From Candidatus Kaiserbacteria bacterium (GTDB lineage Bacteria; Patescibacteriota; Minisyncoccia; Phycocordibacterales; Phycocordibacteraceae): DNA of 57,524 nt. Both the position numbers and the translations under genes were made by a program. Where the stretch lies: assembly GCA_023269035.1 (NCBI GenBank), contig JAHFMJ010000003.1:1-57524 (forward strand). The letters run 5' to 3'. Within the stretch, counting starts at the first letter, position 1; the number at the start of each line of letters is the position of its first letter. The notes beneath the pieces are model-generated. The model was not told the origin of the DNA and ran no database searches. It saw only the letters and a list, made by a program, of their open reading frames with translations. This document shows positions 1 to 48,466 of the stretch, piece by piece.

Positions 1-3000
1 TCGTCCGTCGCGAGCGCATGGGCCATATCGAGCTCGCGTCGCCCGTCGCACACATCTGGTTCCTCCGTAGCGTCCCGTCGCGCATCGCGCTTATCCTCGG
101 CGTCTCCGCAACCGATGCAGAGAAAGTGGTGTACTTCGCTGGCTATATAGTCACGAAGGTCAACATCGAGGAGCGCGACCGCTTGCTCCGCGAACTTGAG
201 ACTGAATACAAGACCAAGTTCAAGGCGGTGACCAATGAGAAGGCGCAGACAGAATTGAAGACACTCATGCAGGGCGCAAAAGGCGACATTGAGCGCATCG
301 CGCCCGGTGTCGTCCTTGACGAGATCGAGTACCACCGTTTCTCGGTGAAGTACGGCACCTTCTTCGAAGCAGGCATTGGCGCAGAGGCTATTTACACTAT
401 CTTCAAGGGTCTTGACCTCACCAAGCTCGCCACGACTCTCGAGACACAGCTTGAGAAGGCAGGAGCTGCCGAGACCGAGAAGCTCAACAAGCGCCTCTCC
501 CTCATCCGCTCCATGATAAAGGCAGGCGTCCGCCCTGAATGGATGTTCCTCACCCGCATACCGATTACGCCTCCGGCGTTGCGCCCGATGGTGGCGCTTG
601 AGAGCGGCCGCCACGCGACTTCCGACGTCAACGACCTCTACCGCCGGGTCATCAATCGTAACAACCGCCTCGTTAAATTGCGCGATATTTCAGCGCCAGA
701 GGTCATCCTCCGTAACGAGAAGCGCATACTCCAAGAGGCCGTCGACGCGCTCCTCGACAACAGCATCCGCCGCGGTGGAGCAGCATTTTCTGCAACCTCT
801 CCGGCACAGCGCCGCCCGCTCAAATCTCTTGCAGATTATCTCAAGAGCAAACAGGGTTACTTCCGTTTCAACCTCCTCGGCAAGCGCGTGGACTACTCCG
901 GCCGTTCCGTCATCGTTGTCGGCCCGTCCCTCGCGCTTGATGAATGTGGTTTGCCCAAGCGCATGGCGCTTGAGCTCTTCCGTCCGTTCGTCATCGCGAA
1001 GCTCCTCGAACGCGAACTTGCGCACAATATCCGTGGAGCCGGTCGCCTTATAGAAGAGGGCATACCGGAAGTATGGGCCATCCTCGAAGAGGTCACTGAA
1101 GGCAAGTACGTCCTCCTCAACCGCGCACCGACATTGCACCGCCAAGGTATCCAGGCGTTCAAGCCTATCTTGATCGAAGGCAACGCTATCCAACTGCACC
1201 CGCTCGTCTGTCCGGCATTCAACGCGGACTTCGACGGCGACCAGATGGCCGTCCATGTGCCGCTCTCTGATGAAGCGCAGATGGAAGCACGCGAAATAAT
1301 GTCAGCTGCGAAGAACGTACTCAAACCGGGTTCAGGCCAGCCAGTCATCTTCGAGAAGCCGCTTGATATCGCGCTCGGTGTGTATTGGATGACCCGCGAA
1401 GCAGGAAATGAGAAAGGCGAAGGCAAGTTCTTCCCCTCGCCGAACGCAGCAATCATGGCGTATGATTTCGGCGCCGTCGGCATTCACGCAAAAGTGACGG
1501 TCCTTCCGACCGAGGGTAATCCGAAATATGCCGCGTTCAAGGGAGAGCGCTTTGAGACGACCGTTGGCCGCCTCCTCTTCAACAGCATCCTCCCGAAAGA
1601 TTATCCTTACCTTAATGGGGAGATAAAAAAGCAGCAGCTCGGCAAATTGGTTGACGACATCATAAGGATCTATGGCCTCGTCGAGACACCGCGCATCTTG
1701 GACAAGATAAAGCACTTTGGTTTCCAGTTCGCGACCAAATCCGGCATCTCCTTCAGCTTTGACGATCTTGCCGTTCCTGAGACGAAAAAGAAGCTCGTCG
1801 CCGATGCGCGTAAGGAAGTGCAAGCAATAGCTGATCAGTATGAAGACGGCCTTCTGACAGCGGAAGAGAAGCTCCGTCTGACAGTCGAAGTCTGGCAGAA
1901 AGCGATTGGTGATATCGAGAAGGAAATTCTTCCATCCCTCGACAAGCTTTCATCCGTATACACTATGGTCGTCTCCGGCGCCCGCGGTTCCGCTCGCCAG
2001 CTCTCGCAGATGGCCGGCATGAAAGGTCTCGTGACGAACACGAAAGGCGAGGTCATCGAGTTCCCGGTGGTCTCCTCCATGAAAGAAGGTCTCACGCCGA
2101 TCGAGTATTTCACGACGACGCACGGCTCACGCAAGGGCCTCACCGACACCGCACTCAAGACCGCACACGCCGGCTACCTGACGCGCCGCCTCTTCGACGT
2201 TGCCCAAGATATCGTAGTTGCTGAGCAAGATTGTGGAACCAAAAGCGGCATTCCTATCCGCCGTGTCCGTTCGACCGGCATGGAAGCTGACCTGGGCAAA
2301 CTACTTGCAGGACGCACGCTTGCCAAAGAAGTAACCGCAGGAGAGAAGACCTACAAGCGGGGCGTGCTGCTCTCCATAGACGACGCAAAGACGATCGCCG
2401 ATGCGGGGATTACCGAAGCCCTGGTCCGCTCTCCGATGTCGTGTGAGAGCGAACGCGGCATCTGCCAAAAGTGCTATGGCGCCGACCTTGCGACGCGACA
2501 GATCATCGACATCGGCGAAGCGGTAGGCACCATCGCGGCACAGGCCATCGGTGAACCGGGTACTCAGCTGACCATGCGCACCTTCCACACTGGAGGCGTG
2601 GCGACCATCGGCGGAGACATTACGCACGGCTTGCCGCGCGTCGAGGAACTCTTTGACAAACGTCCGCCAAAAACGCCTGCGGTCCTTTCACAGGTTGAGG
2701 GCGACGTCATCGAGATCAAGGACGATATGGGCAAAAAGACTATCGTCATCCTTCCAGACGTCGGGAGCGAAGGTGCTTCGAAGACACGCGATAAGATCGA
2801 ATACGAGGTGCCCCATCGTCGTGTCGCACTCGTCCAGACGGGCACGCACGTTATGCGCGGGGATGCGCTCACTGACGGCTCACTAGACCTCGACGAGCTG
2901 TTCGAGCTCGCTGGCTCGGAAAAGTTGCAGGAGTATATGATCGACGAGGTTTCGAAGATCTATGATCTCCAGGGAGCGCCGGTCTCACACAAACACATGG

Positions 3001-3452: not shown

Positions 3453-5083
3453 TGTCTGACACCGTACAAAAAATAAAGGACGCACTCGCCATTGTCGACG
3501 TGGTGCAGCCGTACGTGAAGCTCACGCGTGCTGGCAAATACTTCAAAGGAATCTCGCCCTTCACTAAGGAAAAAACCCCATCGTTCTTCGTCTCCCCAGA
3601 ACGAGGTCTGTACCATTGCTTTTCCTCCGGCAAGGGGGGTGACATGTTCACCTTCATCGAAGAGATAGAGGGCGTTGATTTTCGCGGGGCATTGAAGATC
3701 CTTGCCGAGAAAGCCGGCATACCTTTGGTCGTCGAGCGGCCGGGTGAGCGCGACATGCGCGAGAGGCTCTTTGCTGCGCTTGCTGAAGCGAACGAGTTTT
3801 TCGTGTTGAACCTTGCTTCGCGTACCGACGCGATGGATTACCTCGTTACAAGAGGACTGACGAAAGAGACTATCCGTGAATGGACGTTGGGTTATGCTCC
3901 TAAAGAATGGCAGAGCCTTCACGGATATCTTCTCGGAAAGGGATTTACGGAAAACGAGTTGGAACGCGCCGGACTCATCAAGAAGCCGGATACCGGCCTG
4001 CCTGCGCAGGCAGGCGAAGCTGGCACTCACCGCTATTACGACCGCTTCCGCGGACGTATCATGTTTCCAATCCGGGACGTTTCGAACAGGGTTATCGCTT
4101 TCTCGGGACGGATATTCGAGGACGATCCGGTTCACCCCCAGGCAAAGTACCTGAACTCTCCTGAGGGCGATGTCTTCGACAAATCAAAAGCGCTTTATGG
4201 CATAGAGAAGGCGAGGGAAGGCATCCGCACCCTTCATGCAACTATACTCGTGGAAGGCCAGATGGACTTGCTTCTAGCGCACCAGGCCGGATATCACAAT
4301 ACGGTTGCCACGTCAGGCACTGCATTTACTGACAAGCATGCCGAACTTATCAAACGCCACACTGAGAATCTCCTCATCGCCTATGACGGGGACAGAGCGG
4401 GGATAGCCGCTGCAGGCCGCGCTGCAGCGATAGCGCTCGGTAAAGGCATGAATGTCAAGATCGCCAAGCTCCCTCCAGGAAGCGACCCGGCAGACCTCAT
4501 CAAAGAGAACCCGGAGTCCTTCAAAACAGCGGTGAAAGGAGGCCTGCATGTTGTAGATTTCTACCTAGCGCACCTTATGGATGCGCACTATGATGCACGC
4601 ACCTTCCGTCTCGAAGTGTCGCGGACGGTACTGCCATACGTTGCCATGATCCAAAATAAGATAGACCAAGCGCATTTCGTGCAACGCGTCGCCGAGGTCC
4701 TCTCTGTTGAGGTTGATGCGGTAAAAGCTGAACTCAAAAAGGTCTCAAATCCGAGCGCGACTATGTCAAACGCCGTTCCTACGGTGGGAGAGCCATTCCT
4801 CTCTCGCGTTGAAGCCCTTGAGCGCCTTATACTGGGTATCGAGGGTAAGACCACAGAAACCGCAGCGCTCTTCGAGGCCGACCTTTTTCTTGAACGATAT
4901 CCTGAAAACGCTTCCCGCGAGGCAGCTGTCGAAGAGTTGCGAGCCGAGCTTCTGAGAGAGCGAAAGCACGAAGAGTATCGGGAAACCGTACGCGCGCTGC
5001 GCGCAGCAGAAGCCGCTCAGGACACAGTACAGGCAGAGCAGTTGATGAAGACACTTACCAACCTTGCTTTGCACCTAAAATAA
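3452..5083 (+). CDS. dnaG: DNA primase
   Basis: EKTPSF zinc-ribbon region (ligands degenerate, see findings). TOPRIM motifs ILVEGQMDLL and AYDGDRAG. ATG 3452 overlaps the rpoC TGA (TGATG); TTG 3449 is an alternative start. Confidence 0.93.
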   Translation: MSDTVQKIKDALAIVDVVQPYVKLTRAGKYFKGISPFTKEKTPSFFVSPERGLYHCFSSGKGGDMFTFIEEIEGVDFRGALKILAEKAGIPLVVERPGERDMRERLFAALAEANEFFVLNLASRTDAMDYLVTRGLTKETIREWTLGYAPKEWQSLHGYLLGKGFTENELERAGLIKKPDTGLPAQAGEAGTHRYYDRFRGRIMFPIRDVSNRVIAFSGRIFEDDPVHPQAKYLNSPEGDVFDKSKALYGIEKAREGIRTLHATILVEGQMDLLLAHQAGYHNTVATSGTAFTDKHAELIKRHTENLLIAYDGDRAGIAAAGRAAAIALGKGMNVKIAKLPPGSDPADLIKENPESFKTAVKGGLHVVDFYLAHLMDAHYDARTFRLEVSRTVLPYVAMIQNKIDQAHFVQRVAEVLSVEVDAVKAELKKVSNPSATMSNAVPTVGEPFLSRVEALERLILGIEGKTTETAALFEADLFLERYPENASREAAVEELRAELLRERKHEEYRETVRALRAAEAAQDTVQAEQLMKTLTNLALHLK

Positions 5084-5111: not shown

Positions 5112-6335
5112 ATGGCAAAGAAAACCAAAAAACGCTCTCCACGCCCGAAACGCAAGGCTCTTCGAACGAAGAAGAGCGTGAAAAAGGTTGTACCAAAGAA
5201 GAAGGCCCTCTCCAAAAGATCTACGCCGAAGATAGTAAAGCCCAAAAGTGTCTCGGGGAAGAAGCGCCAGCAACTGGAGATGAAAGGGGATCGCCTTATC
5301 GCCAAGGGCAAGGAGCGGGGTTACGTTACTTACAATGAGATACTAAAAGAGTTTCCGACCATCGAGGAGAATGTCGTTTTCCTGGAACAGCTTTATGAGC
5401 GGCTCTCGACTTCGGGCGTTGACGTGCTTGAAAGCGGAGGCATGCTTGAGGAGGTACCGGACGAGGTCGTGATGCGCGGCGGCTACCGGGGCGAGGGCTC
5501 TGCCCACGACTCCATCCAGATGTATTTGCGCGAGATAGGCCAGTACCCGCTCCTCACTGGCCAGGAAGAACGCGACCTTGCGAAGCGTATCGTCGAGGGA
5601 GATGAAGAGGCAAAGAACCTCCTCGCACGCGCAAACCTCCGTCTTGTCGTCTCCATAGCAAAAAAATATGCGTCTCGCTCTTCCGACCTCTCGCTCCTCG
5701 ACCTCATCCAAGAGGGGAACCTCGGCCTCTTCAAGGCAGTCGACAAATTCGACTATACGAAAGGATACAAGTTCTCTACCTATGCTACCTGGTGGATACG
5801 CCAGGCTATAACCCGTGCACTTGCCGACCAGAGTCGTACCATCCGCATCCCCGTGCACATGGTGGAGACGATCGCCAAGTACAAGCAGATAGTCCGTCGT
5901 CTCGAACAAGACCTTGGCCGCGACCCCATGCCCGAGGAGATATCCGCCGAGATGGGTGTTGATGTCGAAAAGGTCTACCAGATAGAACAGATAAACCAGG
6001 AAACGCTTTCACTCGAAGCGCCCATCACTTCAGGAGACGATGACGACTCCTCGGCACGCGGCGACTTTGTCGCTGACACCTCCCTCCCGATGCCCGACCA
6101 GGAGACCGCGCATCGTATCCTCGTTGAGCAGCTTCATGAGATACTGGACGACCTGACGCCGAAAGAAAGAAAGATACTTGCCATGCGGCACGGGCTTGAA
6201 GATGGCATCTATCATACCCTTGAGGAAGTGGGGCAGGAGTTCGGTGTTACGCGCGAACGCATCAGGCAAATAGAAGCGAAGGCACTGGAAAAGATCCGCA
6301 CCCATGGCAAGGCAAAAAAACTCCGTTCGTATTAG
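5112..6335 (+). CDS. rpoD: primary-type sigma-70 factor with Lys/Arg-rich N-terminal tail
   Basis: Region 2 [13 protein letters not shown], and region 4.2 [23 protein letters not shown]. dnaG-rpoD synteny. ATG 5112 (TTG 5100 alternative). Confidence 0.95.
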
Positions 6336-32970: not shown

Positions 32971-34659
32971 ATGGGGCATGAGGCCTTTAAACGCGAGGAC
33001 GCAGCGACCCGGGGAACCAGGGCCGCTTTTCGTGTGGAGACAAAAAGCTCTTTGGATATCCCGAGAGTCGTCATTGCAGAACCTCAAAGGTTCGAGTTTC
33101 CTGCATTACCTATCGACATGCGCCACCCGGAACGTCGGCATCAAAAACCTACTCAGGAAAAAAGCATCAGGCGAGTCAAGTCGGAAGATGAAAGAAAGGG
33201 TGGCTTAGATGGTGTCGTCCCTGAACAGACTCCGTCAAGTGCTGAGGAGGAAGAAACTTCCCGCCGTCCGCTGCACCCCATATGGCGTTTTGTTATAAAT
33301 ATCCCGACCGTCCTCGGATTCGGAGGCATGGCACTGGACGTATACGCGATGAAAGCAGGCCTTGCCTTGCTCCACTCGTTTCTGACCCCGATCGCATTGG
33401 GACTCCTCGCGGTGTCATTCGCAAAAAGCGTGGAGCATCTGCTGCGCACCGGGATCTACTTTGCAGGACAAAAGATCGCTAACTTGGGAGAACGGCTTGG
33501 CCAGGATTGGGAGAAGATGAGAAACCCAGGCTTGCTTCAGACCACCTTTGTCGAACGGTATATCGAAGGCCCGCTCCTGAGTTTGCCGGGGCATGTGTTG
33601 AATGGTATTGGAGCGGTCCTTGGCGCTTTGGCACGAGTGGTGTTAGCTGCCCCGGGTGTTATAGGAAAAGGCCTTTGGGAAGGGCTCTTATGGGGAGCGG
33701 AGGCCTCTGGCGCAGGAGTCCGATTGGGTGCGCGCGCCCTTGGTGGAATTTGGAAATTCGTACGAGCGGTACCACCGACCATAGGGGACGGCATTGTTGC
33801 GCTCAGCGGAAGGTGGAAAGAGGTTCGGCGTCGCAGGGCTGAGCGCAAGGCCTTTAACGCCTCAAGCAAGGCACACATGGACCAAAACTTCATCAATACT
33901 ATCGAAAGGCTAATCGGTACTGGAGGAAATTATAAGGCAGCGGCGCGTAAAGTACCTTTTGTCCACGACCCAGCAATCCGTTCAGAATTATGCGAACGTA
34001 TCATCACCGGGATGTTCCCGTATGGAGTCACGAGCGGGATCACCCATCTCGGGGAGGGCCACCTTTCTAGAAAAGACTTGAAAAAATTGCAAGGATTCCT
34101 CCCGATCGCGCAGAATCTCGTATCATATGTGCACGACCTCTCGGTAAGGAACGATATCAACCTGCGTCTCACCGAGATACGTATCGCTTTCGCAGAGAGG
34201 GGGTTGGGCAAGGAAAATCAGGCTCAGAGCGGTGGCTTCGTCCAGAAAATAGGATCCGGCTTGAAGAGGTGGCTCGGGAAGCGGAGCGAGAACGAATACA
34301 GCGCCGCCGCAAGAAGCATAGGGAACATACACGGAAATTGGAACCCGTGGAGTAAGGCAAGTAAGGACGCACGCACAATGCGAGATGATGCACGCAAGCA
34401 GATCATTGAAAGCATCTATTCATACGACCGCATCAATCTCATCCCGCAGCTGACTCCGATCGGCATCAATCTGTTCAAAGGAAAACTCGCGTTCGCCATC
34501 GGTGTCGCGAGAGATATACATGATGACGAAGTGTACAATGACATGCGCGATCGTCTGATACTGGTGCGCAATAAACTCATCGGCCGGATGATCGAACTCG
34601 GCATGAACATTGCTTACGACGGGTCCCTGCACACGGAACTAAAGGAAAGAGGAACGTAA
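32971..34659 (+). CDS. large hypothetical membrane-associated protein (562 aa) with internal duplication
   Basis: Charged N-terminus, two or more TM (IWRFVINIPTVLGFGGMALDVYAM, LTPIALGLLAVSFA), and a Gly-rich region. Two C-terminal repeats of about 95 aa (NYKAAARKVPFVHD... / EYSAAARSIGNIHG...). Confidence 0.7.
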   Translation: MGHEAFKREDAATRGTRAAFRVETKSSLDIPRVVIAEPQRFEFPALPIDMRHPERRHQKPTQEKSIRRVKSEDERKGGLDGVVPEQTPSSAEEEETSRRPLHPIWRFVINIPTVLGFGGMALDVYAMKAGLALLHSFLTPIALGLLAVSFAKSVEHLLRTGIYFAGQKIANLGERLGQDWEKMRNPGLLQTTFVERYIEGPLLSLPGHVLNGIGAVLGALARVVLAAPGVIGKGLWEGLLWGAEASGAGVRLGARALGGIWKFVRAVPPTIGDGIVALSGRWKEVRRRRAERKAFNASSKAHMDQNFINTIERLIGTGGNYKAAARKVPFVHDPAIRSELCERIITGMFPYGVTSGITHLGEGHLSRKDLKKLQGFLPIAQNLVSYVHDLSVRNDINLRLTEIRIAFAERGLGKENQAQSGGFVQKIGSGLKRWLGKRSENEYSAAARSIGNIHGNWNPWSKASKDARTMRDDARKQIIESIYSYDRINLIPQLTPIGINLFKGKLAFAIGVARDIHDDEVYNDMRDRLILVRNKLIGRMIELGMNIAYDGSLHTELKERGT

Positions 34660-42612: not shown

Positions 42613-43698
42613 ATGAGCATCGTCATATTCATCGTGATGCTCCTCGTGCTTGTCGTGGGGCACGAGTTTGGGCACCTCATCGTTGCCAAGCTCTCCGGTA
42701 TGAAAGTGCCGGAGTTCGGAATCGGTTTTCCGCCCAAGCTCTGGGGAAAGAAAATAGGGGAGACGGAATATACCATAAACGCCTTGCCCTTCGGCGGCTT
42801 CGTCAAGATATTCGGCGAGGACGATACGGCCCAAGGTGACCCGCGCGCGTTCGGCAACCGGCCTGTGCTTACGCAGGCCGGAACACTGTTCGCCGGGCCT
42901 TTTGCGAACTTCGTTTTGGCCTTCCTCCTCTCGACTGCAGCCTTCATGATAGGCGTACCGACAGCTATCGACTCTGCTCAAAAGCAGGACGTCAGCAATC
43001 CGCGCGTCCTCGTCGCCGAAGTGCTGAAAAGCTCTCCTGCGCAAATGGCAGGCATCCAGACAGGGGATGAGATACGCTCGATACGCGTCGCCGGAGCCGA
43101 ACAGGCGATCAAGACGCCAGAAGACATACTGACGACGATAGGAGAAGCCAGAGGTCCCATCAACCTCACCATACTTCGCAATAAGCATGAGATCTCTCTA
43201 CAGATGACACCGAAAAGCGGGGTCATCGCGGAAGAGCCCAACCGGCCCGCGATAGGCATTGCAACCGCGCTGGTCGGCATTCGCACACTCCCGCTCTTTG
43301 AGGCCATCGCCACCGGGTGGAGAGACACGCTCGATCATGCATGGAGCATCCTCATAGGAATAGGTACCCTTATCGGTTCTGCATTTACTTTTTCCGCAAA
43401 ACTCTCTGACGTAGCGGGCCCCATCGGCATCGTCTCGCTCGTCGGCGATGCGACGGCTTTCGGCCTCGGCTCGCTACTCTCGTTCGCTGCGCTCATCTCA
43501 GTCAACCTCGGCGTCATCAACCTGTTACCGTTCCCGGCCCTCGACGGGGGCCGCCTAGCACTCCTTGGCGTCGAAACGCTTTCGCGCCGCAAGATACCAG
43601 TATCGGTTGCGAACGCCCTGAATCTCGGCGGCTTCGCTGTGCTCATACTTCTTATGCTCGCGGTGACGGCCCACGACATCCTCCGATTGCTTACTTGA
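42613..43698 (+). CDS. rseP: RIP metalloprotease RseP (site-2 protease)
   Basis: HEFGHLIVA, a central PDZ domain, and NLLPFPALDGG. Confidence 0.9.
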   Translation: MSIVIFIVMLLVLVVGHEFGHLIVAKLSGMKVPEFGIGFPPKLWGKKIGETEYTINALPFGGFVKIFGEDDTAQGDPRAFGNRPVLTQAGTLFAGPFANFVLAFLLSTAAFMIGVPTAIDSAQKQDVSNPRVLVAEVLKSSPAQMAGIQTGDEIRSIRVAGAEQAIKTPEDILTTIGEARGPINLTILRNKHEISLQMTPKSGVIAEEPNRPAIGIATALVGIRTLPLFEAIATGWRDTLDHAWSILIGIGTLIGSAFTFSAKLSDVAGPIGIVSLVGDATAFGLGSLLSFAALISVNLGVINLLPFPALDGGRLALLGVETLSRRKIPVSVANALNLGGFAVLILLMLAVTAHDILRLLT

Positions 43699-43722
43699 CA
43701 TTTTTAAGAAGAAGAGTATACT
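43695..43722 (+). promoter_or_regulatory. near-consensus sigma-70 promoter TTGACA-16-TATACT
   Basis: TTGACA 43695-43700 (overlaps the rseP stop) and TATACT 43717-43722. Confidence 0.6.
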
Positions 43723-43728
43723 TTAAAG

Positions 43729-43927
43729 CAGTTGAATAAAAGCGCCCGAGTGTGGTACCCCGCCACACGAGCTGCCCGAAAAACGGGACGGAAGGATACC
43801 GTAAAAATGAATCCACAGTGTGTCATCCAGAGGCCAAGGCCGAAGGAAGGAGCACTCGCATCCTCACACACCGGTTAGGTGTGTTTTTGTTTAAGAAGGA
43901 TGCGGAATGGTATTGTAAAGACACGAT
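43729..43927 (+). ncRNA. unclassified structured RNA: proA leader/riboswitch-like element or stand-alone sRNA of about 165 nt
   Basis: Non-coding stretch between a strong promoter and proA. Has multiple alternative helices and an intrinsic terminator (see findings). Confidence 0.55.
43866..43892 (+). terminator. intrinsic terminator/attenuator upstream of proA
   Basis: ACACACC (43866-43872) / GGTGTGT (43878-43884) with a GGTTA loop, followed by TTTTGTTT. Confidence 0.75.
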
Positions 43928-45124
43928 ATGAAAAACAGCATCGACTACAAAAAAATACGCCGCGCTTCGGTACTGCTCGCGCAGTCGACCGACGTGCAAA
44001 AAAACCTTTTCCTGAAGAGCCTCGGCGAGAAAATCGTACGCAACCAGAAAAAGATACTTGCGGCCAACGCTCGTGACATCAAAAGCGCGGAAGCCAAGGG
44101 CCTTGAACGTGCATTTATACAACGCCTCGTCCTTGATGAGAAAGGCCTGCGGCACCTTGCCGTAAAAGTGCAAAGCGTACAGAAACTCAAAAGCGGTCTT
44201 GGAGAGACGATAGAGAAGACCGAGAGAGACGGCTTGATACTCAAAAAGGTTCGGGTCCCGCTCGGCGTCCTGGCCGTCATCTATGAAGCACGGCCGGAGG
44301 TGACTACTGACGTTGCGTCGCTGTGTGTTAAAAGTGGCAACGCCGCGATACTCAAAGGCGGTTCGGAAGCGCTTGCTACCAATACGGCTCTCTACGCCTG
44401 TATCCGTGCGGCACTAAAAAAATCAGGGCTGCCGGAGGATGCAGTAACCTTTATCACGACAGGGGACAGGGCAGTGACGAACGAGATGCTTACTCGGCAC
44501 GATGGTATCGACCTTGTTATCGCTCGCGGTGGATACGCTATGGTCAAGGGAGTGATGGAGCGGACAAAGATCCCGGTCCTCGCGCACAGCGCGGGCGGCG
44601 CGCGCGTGTACGTGGACAAGAGCGCTGACCTTGCCATAGCGGAGAGGACGCTGGTGAACGCAAAGATAAACAAGCCCTCTGCCTGTGATTCGCTCGACAC
44701 CATCCTCGTGCATCGCGCAATAGCAAAAAAGTTCATCCCACTCATTACGAAGGCCATGGAAGCTGAAGGCGTAACGGTCAGACGGCAGATGGATTGGGAC
44801 GAGGAAACCCTGAGCCTCAAGGTAGGCATCAAGGTGGTAAAGGACGCTGATGAAGCGATCGCTTTCATAGAAAAACATTCCAAGAAGCACACCGAGGGTA
44901 TCGTCGCGAAGGACGCGAAAGTGGTGAAGCGATTCCTTAATGTCATCGACGCTGCGGCTCTTTTCGTCAATGCTTCTATACAGCTCCACGACGGGTACGT
45001 CTTCGGCCTGGGTGCGGAGATGGGCATCTCGACCTCCAAGCTTCATGCGCGCGGACCGGTCGGGCTGAAAGAATTGACGACGTATAAGTGGGAAGTGTAC
45101 GGACATGGCAACATAAGACAGTGA
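43928..45124 (+). CDS. proA: gamma-glutamyl phosphate reductase
   Basis: 398 aa, collinear with ProA from the first residues. Confidence 0.95.
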   Translation: MKNSIDYKKIRRASVLLAQSTDVQKNLFLKSLGEKIVRNQKKILAANARDIKSAEAKGLERAFIQRLVLDEKGLRHLAVKVQSVQKLKSGLGETIEKTERDGLILKKVRVPLGVLAVIYEARPEVTTDVASLCVKSGNAAILKGGSEALATNTALYACIRAALKKSGLPEDAVTFITTGDRAVTNEMLTRHDGIDLVIARGGYAMVKGVMERTKIPVLAHSAGGARVYVDKSADLAIAERTLVNAKINKPSACDSLDTILVHRAIAKKFIPLITKAMEAEGVTVRRQMDWDEETLSLKVGIKVVKDADEAIAFIEKHSKKHTEGIVAKDAKVVKRFLNVIDAAALFVNASIQLHDGYVFGLGAEMGISTSKLHARGPVGLKELTTYKWEVYGHGNIRQ

Positions 45125-45125
45125 T

Positions 45126-45881
45126 ATGAAGACGAATATGAAAAAGATCGCGATCATCGGCAGCGGACATATGGGGACGGCCCTCTTAGAAGGGTTCGTG
45201 AAAAGCGGCATCGCGAAGTCACGTATTGCGATGAGTGATGGCTCCAAGACGAACGTCCGCGTTGCGGCATCGGCTGACGTCATATTCCTCGCGGTAAAGC
45301 CTGGCGTGGTCCAGAGTGTTCTTGCTGAGATTAAGGATGTCTCGTCGGGAAAGCTCATCGTCTCTGTGGCCGCAGGGGTTACGATAGCGGCGATGAAGAA
45401 AAGTACGAGTGCGCGTGTCGTGCGTATGATGCCGAACATTCCTGTTGCCGTAAATGAAGGAGCGATCGGGATTTTCGCCGGAGGCCTGCCAGCGTTGGAG
45501 AAAAAGGCTCTGCGCGCACTTTTGGAGAAGCTCGGTATCGTCATCGAAGTAAAGAAGGAAAGCGACCTTGATACGCTGACGCTCATAGCTGGGTGCGGGC
45601 CGGGGATCGTGGCGTATCTCGTGGCGACGCTCGCTCTTGAGGCAAAGAAGCTCGGGATTTCAACCTTTGAGAGCGAGATGCTCGCGTTTCAGATCTTCAA
45701 GGGGACGCTCGCGTATATGGAAAACACGAAGACTCCTGCCGAGACCATGATGCGTTCGGTGGCAACAAAGGGGGGCGTGACGGAGGCCATCCTTGCACGT
45801 CTGACGAAAGAAGGGACCCGCAAGGCTTTTGCGCGTGCGATAGGCGAAGGACGCTCCCGCTTGAGAAAGATCAAGAAATAA
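45126..45881 (+). CDS. proC: pyrroline-5-carboxylate reductase
   Basis: Rossmann motif IAIIGSGHMG and C-terminal P5CR pattern (SVATKGGVTEA). Confidence 0.9.
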   Translation: MKTNMKKIAIIGSGHMGTALLEGFVKSGIAKSRIAMSDGSKTNVRVAASADVIFLAVKPGVVQSVLAEIKDVSSGKLIVSVAAGVTIAAMKKSTSARVVRMMPNIPVAVNEGAIGIFAGGLPALEKKALRALLEKLGIVIEVKKESDLDTLTLIAGCGPGIVAYLVATLALEAKKLGISTFESEMLAFQIFKGTLAYMENTKTPAETMMRSVATKGGVTEAILARLTKEGTRKAFARAIGEGRSRLRKIKK

Positions 45882-45882
45882 C

Positions 45883-46938
45883 ATGTACAAGAGAGTCGTC
45901 ATAAAAATAGGGAGCGGAGTGATCACTAAGGATGGGCGTCTTGCTGAAGACGTCGTGGCAGGACTGGTGGAACAGGTGGCAGCTTTGCGTACACGAGGTG
46001 TCGAGGTGCTTATCGTGACCTCTGGAGCTGTCGTGACCGGCAAGAGCATACTCTCAGAACGAGGAATGTCCGAGAGCATCCCTGACCGGCAAGCATTGGC
46101 TGCCGTCGGGCAGATAGGCCTTATGGCTTTGTATGCAAAGCTCTTTAACGAACAGGGGATGCACTGCGCACAGGTGCTGGTGACGAAGGGCGACTTCAGG
46201 GATCATCAGCATTACATAAACATGAAAAACTGCCTGGAAAATCTCCTGCAGAGGGACATCATCCCCATCGTGAACGAGAACGACGCCATCGCTATCACCG
46301 AGCTCATCTTTACTGACAACGATGAGGTGGCGGGGCTCATTGCGTCGCTCTTGAACGCGGAAGCAGTGGTCTTTCTCACGAGTGTTGACGGTATCCTCGA
46401 GCAGGAAACCGGCACGGTAATAACGGAGATACATCCTGATGCAGCTCAATCATTCGAAAGCCATATCACGAACGTAAAATCAGCTACGGGTCGGGGCGGT
46501 ATGCATAGGAAGTTCGAGATAGCCAAAAAGCTCATGGCACAAGGGATCGCGGCTCATATAGCGAACGGCGCGAAAAAAGATGTCGTGGAAGATATCATTG
46601 AAGGGAGAAAGATAGGAACAACTTTTATTCCTGATAAGAAAGCTTCCGCTCCGAAGAGACGGCTTGCGTATGCTGAAGGCCTTTCAGCTGGTGCGGTCTA
46701 CGTAGATAACCGCGCAGAAGATATCCTGCTATCGAAAAAGTTCGTGAGCCTTTTGCCGGTCGGCGTCGTGAAGGTTGAAGGACAGTTCAAGAAAGGCGAT
46801 ACCATAGAAATACGCAACGAGAGCGGGAAGAAGCTCGGCTTCGGCGTCGCGCAATATGATGCCGAAAAAGCAAAAGAGCTGAGGGGCAGGAAAGGCGGCC
46901 GCGCCTTGATTCATTACGACTATATGTTCATTGGCTAA
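45883..46938 (+). CDS. proB: glutamate 5-kinase (with PUA domain)
   Basis: VIKIGSGVIT, VTSGAV, and a C-terminal PUA-like region. 351 aa. Confidence 0.95.
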   Translation: MYKRVVIKIGSGVITKDGRLAEDVVAGLVEQVAALRTRGVEVLIVTSGAVVTGKSILSERGMSESIPDRQALAAVGQIGLMALYAKLFNEQGMHCAQVLVTKGDFRDHQHYINMKNCLENLLQRDIIPIVNENDAIAITELIFTDNDEVAGLIASLLNAEAVVFLTSVDGILEQETGTVITEIHPDAAQSFESHITNVKSATGRGGMHRKFEIAKKLMAQGIAAHIANGAKKDVVEDIIEGRKIGTTFIPDKKASAPKRRLAYAEGLSAGAVYVDNRAEDILLSKKFVSLLPVGVVKVEGQFKKGDTIEIRNESGKKLGFGVAQYDAEKAKELRGRKGGRALIHYDYMFIG

Positions 46939-46944
46939 TGAGGG

Positions 46945-46973
46945 TTGATTTTTATAAAATTTCGTTTTAGAAT
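46945..46973 (+). promoter_or_regulatory. candidate promoter TTGATT-17-TAGAAT, 8 nt before ATG 46982
   Basis: TTGATT 46945-46950 and TAGAAT 46968-46973. Confidence 0.5.
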
Positions 46974-46981
46974 AAAAATAT

Positions 46982-47164
46982 ATGGAGATACGATACCGAG
47001 GTCTTGCGAAAGAGCGGCCAATTCTAGTGAAGACTGGGCGTACTTGCCGTGCAGGGATTTGTGAAGGTCCTGGGAATAATGGATGCTTGGGTTGCGAAAA
47101 TTATTTTTGTAATGACCATATACGAAGTCATTATTGCGAGAAGGACGGCGGCGGCCCATGGTAG
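46982..47164 (+). CDS. small (60 aa) AN1-like zinc-finger protein
   Basis: Pattern C-x4-C-x7-C-x2-C-x4-C-x2-H-x3-H-x-C (CRAGICEGPGNNGCLGCENYFCNDHIRSHYC). Own promoter. Lower GC than flanking genes. Confidence 0.5.
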   Translation: MEIRYRGLAKERPILVKTGRTCRAGICEGPGNNGCLGCENYFCNDHIRSHYCEKDGGGPW

Positions 47165-47178
47165 GGCCACGACTCTTT

Positions 47179-47206
47179 TTGACGAGACGAGGGGCTACGG
47201 TACAAT
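47179..47206 (+). promoter_or_regulatory. candidate promoter TTGACG-16-TACAAT, 6 nt before proS ATG
   Basis: TTGACG 47179-47184 and TACAAT 47201-47206. Confidence 0.55.
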
Positions 47207-47212
47207 GACCTG

Positions 47213-48466
47213 ATGCGCCAATCACAGCTTTTCACGAAGACCAGGAAGGAAGCCCCGAAAGATGAAGTTTCAAAAAACGCCCAGCTCCTCGTGCGCGCTG
47301 GCTATATACACAAGGAGATGGCAGGAGTCTATGATCTCTTGCCATTAGGATTGCGGGTCATAGATAAGATACGGAACATCATCCGCGAGGAGATGAACGG
47401 CCTTGGGGCGCAAGAGGTGTCGCTTTCAGCTCTGCAGGACCCGGCGTTATGGGAAGCGACGGACCGCTGGGATGACGAGAAGATCGACGTCTGGTTCAAG
47501 ACAACGCTCAAGAATGGCACGGAGCTGGGTCTCGGCTGTACTCATGAAGAGCCGATGGCGAACATGCTGAAGAATCACATCAGCTCGTACCGCGACCTTC
47601 CGCGCTACACCTATCAGTTCCAAACTAAATTCAGGAATGAGCTGCGCGCGAAAAGCGGCATCATGCGCGGACGTGAATTTCTTATGAAAGACATGTATTC
47701 CTTCAATAGGACGGAGGAAGAGTTAGAAAAATTTTATACGGATGCGGGCGTCGCGTACGAAAACGTATTCCGCAGGGTCGGCCTCGGGGATATCACGTAT
47801 CTTACCTTTGCGTCAGGGGGGATGTTCTCGAAGTTCAGTCATGAGTTTCAGACGGTCTCGGAAGCGGGCGAAGACATCATTTACATCGACACCGAGAAGC
47901 GCATTGCGGTGAATAAGGAAGTATATAAAGATGATATCCTCTTTGACCTTGGCTTAGAAAAGGGAAAGCTGGTCGAAGCAAAGGCAATAGAGGTCGGAAA
48001 TATATTTAAATATGGCACTCGATACTCTGTACCTCTTGGCCTCACCTTCAAAGACGAGGAGGGGAACGAGAAGCCGGTGATCATGGGAGCCTACGGCATC
48101 GGGCTCGGAAGAGTGATGGGCACGGTGGTGGAAATGCTTGCGGACGAGAAAGGCATCGTCTGGCCAGAGTCTATCGCGCCGTTTGCCGTCCATCTCGTGG
48201 AGCTTTCGCAAGGAGACGCGACGATACGCGAGAATGCCGACGCGCTCTATGAAGACCTGAAGAGCGCAGGTATCGAAACCCTCTACGATGACCGTGATCT
48301 CCGTGCGGGAGAAAAATTCGCTGACGCCGACCTGCTCGGTATCCCGTACCGCATCATCGTTGGAAAAAGCACGACAAACGAGATGATAGAAGTTGTCCGC
48401 CGTAAAGACAGCGAAAAGCGCACCGTTTCGAAAGAATCACTCCTCTCTGGTTCCTATGGCTTTTAG
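47213..48466 (+). CDS. proS: proline--tRNA ligase, bacterial-type but lacking the INS editing domain
   Basis: Motif 2 FRNELRAKSGIMRGREFLMKD, motif 3 GAYGIGLGRV, and a C-terminal anticodon-binding domain. Only 417 aa. Confidence 0.92.
   Translation: MRQSQLFTKTRKEAPKDEVSKNAQLLVRAGYIHKEMAGVYDLLPLGLRVIDKIRNIIREEMNGLGAQEVSLSALQDPALWEATDRWDDEKIDVWFKTTLKNGTELGLGCTHEEPMANMLKNHISSYRDLPRYTYQFQTKFRNELRAKSGIMRGREFLMKDMYSFNRTEEELEKFYTDAGVAYENVFRRVGLGDITYLTFASGGMFSKFSHEFQTVSEAGEDIIYIDTEKRIAVNKEVYKDDILFDLGLEKGKLVEAKAIEVGNIFKYGTRYSVPLGLTFKDEEGNEKPVIMGAYGIGLGRVMGTVVEMLADEKGIVWPESIAPFAVHLVELSQGDATIRENADALYEDLKSAGIETLYDDRDLRAGEKFADADLLGIPYRIIVGKSTTNEMIEVVRRKDSEKRTVSKESLLSGSYGF

Follow-up and report, generated by a model that had tools for sequence, protein, structure and literature searches.

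Introduction

T-boxes are seen as mainly Gram-positive regulators that are defined by the T-box sequence, and in Bacillus proline genes are under their control. Here we analyse a structured non-coding stretch of about 160 nt that lies between rseP and proA-proC-proB in a genome of Candidatus Kaiserbacteria (assembly GCA_023269035.1, contig JAHFMJ010000003.1, positions 1 to 57,524 of the forward strand; this whole stretch of 57,524 nt is referred to as the window). The element is almost certainly a proline-specific member of a T-box leader lineage of Patescibacteria, the candidate phyla radiation (CPR), though without the name-giving T-box. It thus represents a known kind of RNA in a new, reduced form, the identity of which is secure.

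With the classical T-boxes of Rfam family RF00230 (Bacillus subtilis tyrS, glyQS, proBA) the Patescibacteria family shares its position as leader of amino-acid genes, a Stem I specifier codon that matches the pathway, a probable GA motif at the foot of this stem, Stem II, the IIA/B pseudoknot with the F-box and Stem III, and its complete members also carry the AGGGUGGNACCGCG core with the UGGU bulge and a mutually exclusive antiterminator and terminator. In contrast to RF00230, Stem I is a 6-bp hairpin that displays the specifier in its terminal loop and has no platform for the tRNA elbow, and the segment that links Stem III to the T-box core has acquired an outer helix, a hairpin and a U-run. 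Complete family members score only 28-40 bits with the Rfam model, the gathering score of which is 93, and the copy in the window lacks the core, the antiterminator and the second terminator altogether.

Translational T-boxes of actinobacteria (Mycobacterium tuberculosis, Nocardia farcinica ileS) have an intermediate or ultrashort Stem I, and according to a review, transcriptional T-boxes otherwise cannot do without the elbow platform (PMC7583486, PMC11297988). The short, platform-less Stem I, the recognition via Stem I, Stem II and IIA/B and the subsequent linker pseudoknot, purine string and Stem III are common to these RNAs and the Patescibacteria leaders. However, the actinobacterial T-boxes gate ribosome binding by a sequestrator and keep the full discriminator, whereas the leaders of Patescibacteria have an intrinsic terminator at their end and the window copy has no discriminator. 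A further parallel is provided by the glyQS T-box, in which RNA polymerase has programmed pause sites at 138, 178 and 207 (PMC13001445). There, a kinetic checkpoint near Stem III and before the antiterminator provides time for tRNA binding, and the internal hairpin of the family, termed T1, occupies the corresponding place; yet T1 is a conserved hairpin followed by a U-run, i.e. it has the signature of a terminator and not just a pause sequence.

Results

The window RNA is a T-box leader without discriminator

The evidence that decides that the element is more than chance is its homology to a covariance model, R1, together with the covariation among its relatives. R1, for which 17 complete leaders were used while the window and all truncated leaders were excluded, matches window positions 43736-43856 over the full model length with 83.4 bits (E 1.8e-18), while its second match in the window (5181-5268, 11 bits, E 0.44) is at chance level. 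For the covariation test 54 leaders, comprising 52 distinct relatives, were aligned to R1. In this alignment 97.3% of the cells are paired and 17 of the 24 pairs show compensatory changes, resulting in a covariation score of 0.459 as compared to 0.160 for shuffled (0/500 reach the observed value) and 0.02-0.07 for slid alignments. Moreover, the IIB pseudoknot has an exact complement of at least 3 nt in 32 of 39 distinct sequences versus 11 (maximum 18) in shuffles, and in the window itself the RNA 43729-43895 folds with z = -3.56, a value that none of 200 shuffles reaches.

Rfam does not recognize this relationship. Neither the whole window at the gathering score nor 43600-44000 at E<=10 gives a T-box, signal recognition particle (SRP), 6S or riboswitch match, and cmscan of the latter segment at this threshold returns only CRISPR-DR42, InvR and the L31 leader, all at chance level. 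The initial annotation, which had been made by eye from the letters and open reading frames (ORFs), had concluded that no known RNA class fits cleanly; the score with R1 instead identifies a clear homologue of T-box leaders. Its suggestion that a leader sensing proline or tRNA-Pro is plausible holds in its main point, given this homology and the CCC loop, which specifies proline, upstream of proA-proC-proB, and the positions that it had given for the promoter, the structured stretch and the terminator-like hairpin all agree with the sequence.

The window leader keeps Stem III and the lineage-specific insertion of outer helix and T1 and is devoid of the discriminator proper. A T-box core is absent between T1 and proA and nearby, as a pattern search of the window yields only chance-level 12-mers at 33766 and 57501; the A1/A2 antiterminator helices and a second terminator are likewise absent from the leader, leaving T1 as the sole terminator-like element. 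The distal T-loop platform for the tRNA elbow is also missing, Stem I consisting of 6 bp and a 7-nt loop, and there is no second leader copy in the window, where a 21-mer conserved in the family (GACGGAAGNNNACCGTAAAAA) occurs once.

A T-box leader family in Patescibacteria

The nearest relatives of ProA are 57-72% identical and derive from metagenome bins of Patescibacteria, Paceibacterota and Parcubacteria. They keep the order holB-frr-rseP-proA-proC-proB, with an rseP-proA spacer that ranges from 10 to 448 nt. The first clue came from the longest of these spacers (locus L006), the 5' part of which aligns with window 43729-43807 and the 3' part of which contains a model example of a T-box core (AGGGTGGTACCGCG) along with a terminator. 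A scan of the contigs with ProA retrieved just two distant loci, yet these gave the first hints at T-boxes. With the Rfam T-box model L006, L001 and L002, all located 5' of proline genes, score 28-35 bits, i.e. below the threshold. The family was then collected by scanning metagenome contigs with the 21-mer, which gave 77 loci, about 50 of which are leaders of one family (spanning L007-L083, e.g. L011:859-1065(-) and L016:5182-5322(-)).

From 5' to 3' a family member is composed of a promoter, the conserved AGUUGAAUAAAAGCG, a base helix of 3 bp that is flanked by GA...GA, a Stem I of 5-6 bp with the specifier loop, Stem II, Stem IIA with CCGUAAAAA, the IIB pseudoknot to the linker, the purine string AAAG, Stem III (GUGUC...GGAGCAC) and the outer helix around T1, followed by AAGGUGGUACCRCG with the antiterminator and a long second terminator, the core and terminator being a feature of the complete relatives. 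T1, a small hairpin that is rich in G+C and has a run of 5-8 U after it, is found in about 38 of 46 distinct members and precedes the T-box core wherever a core exists. Thus, the family members are genuine T-boxes. A full-text literature search returned no paper that combines riboswitch, T-box and candidate phyla radiation.

The specifier loops go along with the downstream genes. CCC or CCU loops (UUUCCCG, UACCCCG, UUUCCUG) are located 5' of AA_kinase genes (short ProB-type), proA, ornithine cyclodeaminase genes and proS, while a CGC loop (GUCUAC-CGC-AGUAGAC; CGC followed by A) precedes argH and argG. At locus L081, which lies 5' of an ornithine cyclodeaminase gene, the same GUCUAC/AGUAGAC hairpin carries CCC in place of CGC.

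Several side observations concern the diversity of the family. A third class of leaders (L014, L019, L020, L026, L033, L035, L050, L056, L062, L077, L080) has the loop GUCGCGA or AUUCGCGA, which probably presents CGC followed by a purine and would thus specify arginine. These leaders precede genes for proteins without Pfam match (377, 273-289, 339 and 467 aa), zinc-ribbon-like ORFs of 75-82 aa and genes for GNAT acetyltransferases that carry a Cys motif at the C-terminus; all of these may be unrecognised arginine-related genes. In four leaders (L034 ~3690-3760, L067 ~925-1000, L088 1252-1330, L009 ~100-190) an extra hairpin within or before the Stem I loop creates a three-way junction, the specifier segment UUUCCCG or UAUCCCG being kept. 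L006 has about 250 nt of unassigned sequence (2053-2300) between rseP and the promoter of its proline T-box, and this T-box has no Stem III/T1 module, its core following almost directly 3' of the IIA/B pseudoknot.

Truncated leaders are conserved beyond neutral expectation

The discriminator-less ending is not restricted to the window. It recurs 5' of proA at L085/86, L087, L088, L089/90 and L094 and 5' of a tRNA_bind gene and proS at L061, giving seven truncated leaders including the window. Among the closest proA loci that could be retrieved, complete T-boxes exist at L092/93 and L006, Stem I of L092 being nearly identical to that of the window; only a T1-like terminator and the sequence 3' of it are found at L004, and the leader is absent at L003, L084 and L091.

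R1 gives the truncated leaders 56-91 bits, as compared to 53-88 bits for complete members of their subclade. The decoding domains of the truncated leaders (~100 positions) are mutually 0.66-0.90 identical, while the neighbouring proA genes reach 0.27-0.44 at their fourfold-degenerate sites, and stems, T1 and outer helix of these leaders still pair in spite of different sequences. This holds in particular for the outer helix, which is complementary in all truncated relatives (L089 CGAAUCCU/AGGAUUCG; L094 GAAUCCC/GGGGUUC; L087 GAAUCUC/GAGAUUC; L085 GGAUUGA/UCGAUCC; L061 CUUUGU/ACAAAG). As the R1 scores are equal, the identity exceeds that of silent sites and pairing is kept, neutral decay is unlikely, and the pattern of substitutions indicates that the decoding domain of the truncated leaders is under purifying selection.

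The two bases 5' of Stem III behave differently in the two groups: both are purines in 41/41 complete members, but not in three of the seven truncated ones (CA in the window, where the usual AAAG string reads ACAG, and CG in L087 and L094). In known structures the bases at this place touch the duplex of tRNA end and T-box (PMC7583486), and a relaxation is as expected if sensing of the acceptor end has been given up.

Architecture of the window leader

The features of the leader are compiled in Table 1. Promoter P1 (TTGACA 43695-43700, a 16-nt spacer and TATACT 43717-43722) agrees with the consensus at 11 of 12 positions and is the sole such site in 43000-44500. A counterpart, TTGAC(A/T/G)...TA(T/A)A(C/A/G)T, is located 6-7 nt 5' of AGUUGAAU in L085, L088, L089, L094, L061, L016 and L092, and transcription probably starts at A43730, with which the conserved AGUUGAAUAAAAGCG begins. 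Between 43699 and 43927 there is no credible ORF, and the small peptides listed for the leader are not kept in relatives.

Table 1. Positions of the leader elements, promoters and adjacent genes in the window
Feature	Position	Strand	Remarks
Promoter P1	43695..43722	+	-35 element overlaps the rseP stop codon; equivalent promoters in relatives
Base helix P0	AGC 43741-43 / GCU 43771-73 (43741..43773)	+	encloses Stem I; flanking GA...GA
Stem I (ultrashort)	GUGUGG 43750-55 / CCACAC 43763-68; 7-nt terminal loop UACCCCG 43756-62	+	6/6 pairs covary
Stem II	CCCG 43775-78 / CGGG 43784-87, loop AAAAA	+	compensatory changes in 4/4 pairs; 100% of cells paired
Stem IIA	ACGG 43788-91 / CCGU 43799-802	+	sequence invariant in the family; followed by F-box-like CCGUAAAAA
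IIB pseudoknot	loop GGAU 43794-97 / AUCC 43811-14 (IIA/B 43788..43814)	+	covaries in the family
Stem III	GUGUGUC 43818-24 / GGAGCAC 43849-55 (43818..43855)	+	compensatory changes in 5/7 pairs; predicted -14.9 kcal/mol
Outer helix	CGCAUCCU 43857-64 / AGGAUGCG 43897-904	+	encloses T1; 3' strand lies 3' of the T1 U-tract
T1 hairpin	ACACACC 43866-72, loop GGUUA 43873-77, GGUGUGU 43878-84, U-tract UUUUGUUU 43885-92	+	terminator- or pause-type
Candidate P2, extended -10 (TGGTATTGT) for proA	43908..43916	+	11 nt 5' of ATG; status uncertain
Pre-proA series	window 43905-43916; L089 ~1225-1240; L094 ~1180-1195; L084 ~800-812; L091 ~1185-1197; L004 ~2472-2484		
Downstream genes	proA 43928-45124, proC 45126-45881, proB 45883-46938	+	Pfam

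At the foot of Stem I the base helix and its flanks are arranged in a K-turn-like manner (AGC-GCCC-GA...GA-GCU), so that by eye a K-turn or GA motif is probable. The 3-bp helix covaries, its outer pair being AU in 30, UA in 8, GC in 4 and CG in 1 of the aligned sequences, and AA replaces GA in some relatives. The specifier in the Stem I loop is CCC 43759-61, a proline codon, followed by the purine G43762. Stem III has an apical extension of variable length (UCC 43826-28 / GGA 43845-47 and GGC 43832-34 / GCC 43839-41).

Four pairings had been proposed for this RNA in the initial annotation, and all are present in the sequence. Two of them, GTGTGG/CCACAC (Stem I) and CGCATCC/GGATGCG (the outer helix), are conserved, and the latter does enclose the terminator hairpin and keeps its complementarity in the truncated relatives, with a duplex z of -3.1 in the window. 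The third, CGAGTG/CACTCG, has no counterpart in relatives and is taken as a chance helix. The competing register GTGTGT/ACACAC is plausible and stands out in the window (z = -3.2 against shuffled arms), but it is not supported across the family (mean z -0.65).

The T1 hairpin has a predicted energy of -10.8 kcal/mol, and the DNA after its 3' arm reads TTTTGTTT; as terminator-like sites number 2 versus 1.7 expected, a single pattern match is weak evidence. Only 23 nt separate the outer helix from the proA ATG. The conserved 5' segment AAUAAAAG (43735-43742) is complementary to the T1 tail UUUU(G/A)UU (43885-43892), the interrupting G or A facing a U, and this form of the tail is shared by roughly 60% of the family, among them every one of the 12 leaders in the UACCCCG subclade. 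A pairing of the T1 U-run with the A-run after IIA was considered as well and dropped, since the antiparallel register does not fit. T1 stems vary, but the loop always contains GGU (CGGUUA, AGGUCA, UGGUCA, CGGUAG, CGGUUC, UGGUUC, AAGGUC or CGGUAA in the window, L085, L087, L088, L089, L094, L061, L016, L009 and L027). A pairing of this GGU with A73-C74-C75 of tRNA-Pro is conceivable, and leaders of the arginine type do not generally have the GGU.

Discussion

Proposed regulation by read-through of T1

Taken as a whole, the data are best explained by a discriminator-less proline T-box leader that acts in cis, a reading to which we assign a probability of roughly one half. As for its function, tRNA-Pro-dependent read-through of a weak T1 into proA-proC-proB appears tentatively as the likeliest one. 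Transcripts from P1 and those of the upstream mreB-holB-frr-rseP operon would enter the leader, and T1 would act as a weak, leaky terminator or as a pause. The decoding module would bind tRNA-Pro, probably the isoacceptor with the GGG anticodon, via the CCC specifier, and binding might bias the RNA in its choice of either the terminator fold (Stem III and T1) or an alternative fold in which GUGUGU 43818-23 pairs with ACACAC 43866-71. This choice would fix the share of polymerases that reach proA-proC-proB, and the outer helix would close in the read-through RNA. Because the parts that sense the NCCA end are gone, the leader would respond to the availability of tRNA-Pro and not give the canonical read-out of charging.

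Several findings fit this scheme. The T1 hairpins have 5-7 bp and fall far short of the stability of the family's second terminators (median -24 kcal/mol). As T1 is weak and its position corresponds to that of a programmed pause in the glyQS T-box, we read it as leaky terminator or pause. In the window, nascent RNA that ends in the T1 loop has a minimum-energy fold of -20.0 kcal/mol versus -14.3 for Stem III alone, the alternative fold involving ACACAC 43866-71 / GUGUGU 43818-23 and AGGAGC 43848-53 / GCAUCCU 43858-64, whereas Stem III plus T1 wins once the 3' arm of T1 is complete (-25.1 vs -21.2 kcal/mol at full length). Furthermore, the outer helix forms only in read-through RNA, which is thus apparently under selection.

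Other observations weigh against the scheme. Binding of tRNA, termination at T1 and read-through are all steps that we infer, and the known way of telling charged tRNA from uncharged is closed to a leader without discriminator, which makes its regulatory logic hard to see. Two family-wide tests for a conserved antiterminator of T1 gave weak results (mean z -1.4 and -0.65), and the 5' arms of T1 are paired upstream at decision length in 29 of 45 cases. Stem II of the window comprises just 4 bp with the loop AAAAA, and no S-turn is recognisable by eye, the relatives having GAAGA-type loops or long stems. An extended -10-like TGGTAT element precedes proA in all relatives, and at L004 it comes after a plain terminator, so that proA may need no read-through. 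RNAfold closes the terminated RNA by the pairing of the conserved 5' segment with the T1 tail, which would stabilise a free-standing terminated RNA. Finally, the deletion series at the proA locus, from complete leaders via discriminator-less ones to T1 only and nothing, is compatible with slow decay, too.

The main rival explanation builds on some of these points and, although unlikely, carries real weight: the segment from P1 to T1 may be a stand-alone T-box-derived small RNA (sRNA) of about 160 nt that binds or buffers tRNA-Pro via the CCC loop or acts in trans, proA being transcribed from the candidate promoter P2. Its beginning at a near-consensus promoter and its end in a hairpin with a U-run, the tail pairing just mentioned together with the presence of this tail throughout the subclade, and the purifying selection on the decoding domain would all suit such an RNA, and with no discriminator, cis sensing of charging would be impossible anyway. 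The TGGTAT-type -10, moreover, is kept even in leader-free relatives (TGGTAT(C/T)NT in L084 and L091, as well as in L004). However, the -10 of proA is poor (TATTGT) and located 11 nt from the ATG, in contrast to 6-7 nt for good leaderless promoters of the window, T1 is weak compared to the real terminators of the family, and the outer-helix 3' strand beyond the U-tract, which is relevant solely to read-through RNA, retains its complementarity by compensatory changes. All seven truncated copies lie directly 5' of proline genes and are co-oriented with them, which also speaks for action in cis, unless the position is just inherited. The terminated SAM riboswitches SreA and SreB of Listeria, which reportedly act as sRNAs, illustrate that an aptamer freed by its own terminator can function as free RNA; here, in contrast, no trans target or effect is known or predicted, and the ligand would be a tRNA.

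It is quite improbable that the leader is a decaying remnant that has had no regulatory role since the loss of the discriminator, T1 merely ending the rseP operon. Every stage of deletion exists at this locus (complete in L092 and L006, no discriminator in the window and five others, T1-like only in L004, nothing in L003, L084 and L091), the purine string is relaxed in three of seven truncated members and L089 has an altered IIA loop. Yet the 5' domains of the truncated copies are 66-90% identical although silent sites of the adjacent proA are saturated (27-44%), their R1 scores match those of complete relatives, compensatory changes maintain the pairing of the stems, and every copy has a near-consensus promoter. 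A rearranged canonical T-box, for which the initial annotation had pointed to an 11/13 match of GTGTGGTACCCCG (43750-62) to the core GGGTGGTACCGCG, with UGGU facing the tRNA 3' end, or a member of the SRP or 6S class, suggested by a purine-rich stretch loosely resembling SRP domain IV at 43832-55, is refuted by the comparative data, as the match is coincidental and the segment is the 5' arm and CCC-containing loop of Stem I, a covarying hairpin with the codon in its loop in relatives (GUUUGG-UUUCCCG-CCAAAC, GCAGGG-UACCCCG-CCUUGC), many of which have a true core about 150 nt further 3', whereas the purine-rich stretch is the length-variable tip of Stem III and Rfam gives no match to these classes even at E<=10.

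A more speculative idea, which we consider rather doubtful, is that T-boxes of Patescibacteria possess two serial checkpoints, T1 under the control of the decoding module, i.e. the anticodon, and then the classical antiterminator under the control of the tRNA 3' end. The window and its six relatives would then regulate proline genes by the first checkpoint only. If this is true, the discriminator is dispensable for a decoding module to regulate transcription or to serve as a free RNA that binds tRNA.

Irrespective of the mechanism, a sizeable T-box lineage of the Patescibacteria is missed by standard models, so that the annotation of these tiny genomes misses one of the few recognisable regulators; even if the truncated leaders were slow remnants, the search for T-boxes in CPR genomes would profit from R1 as an improved model. 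The family joins an ultrashort Stem I with transcription terminators, which is unexpected in the structural literature, and adds a conserved internal hairpin of the terminator or pause type. Its conserved subgroup, in which the charge-sensing half is lost and the tRNA-decoding half is selected, is a natural test of the decoding module alone, and a single locus provides an evolutionary series from complete riboswitch to nothing.

Genomic context

Upstream of the leader the gene order is mreB, a holB-like gene, frr and the gene of an M50 protease (rseP). The proA start at 43928 is supported by the N-terminus of the protein, which aligns with those of relatives. Good promoters in the window have a TAC(A/T)AT -10 element 6-7 nt 5' of the start codon (47170-47215; e.g. 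52217, 32971, 50495, 52724), in agreement with the short distance noticed in the initial annotation. This spacing implies leaderless mRNAs, to which proA with its 11 nt is an exception.

The sequences directly before proA form a series of their own. It runs from GGTGGTACC, the T-box core of L092, via GGTGGTATC (L089, L094) and AATGGTATTGT (window, L087) to TGGTATCCT / TGGTACTCT at leader-free loci, where the element is located 6 nt 5' of the start codon. Conceivably, an extended -10 element of a promoter has arisen here from a former T-box core.

Downstream of proB follow a small Cys-rich ORF (46982-47164) and proS (47213-48466), a class II synthetase starting with MRQSQLFTKTRKEAP, which has its own leaderless promoter; the proB-proS interval contains the ORF and this promoter and no T-box. 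The ORF comprises 60 codons (CRAGICEGPGNNGCLGCENYFCNDHIRSHYC) and has no significant Pfam match, and a different small Cys-rich ORF is found at the equivalent position of L016. L016 and L027 lack proABC and are arranged as mreB-holB-frr-rseP-[complete Pro T-box]-small ORF-proS, while the window (42613-48466) reads rseP-[truncated leader]-proA-proC-proB-small ORF-proS, i.e. presence or absence of proABC falls exactly at the 3' boundary of the leader. The idea that proABC had been inserted into a T-box, with the second terminator's 3' half ending up behind proB, was dropped, as the similarity is A/T-rich only. At L004, a long inverted repeat (CCCGTTAGAAATCGCGGACGC ... GCGTCCGCGTCCTATTTCTAACGGG) is located at ~5600-5750, directly 5' of proS.

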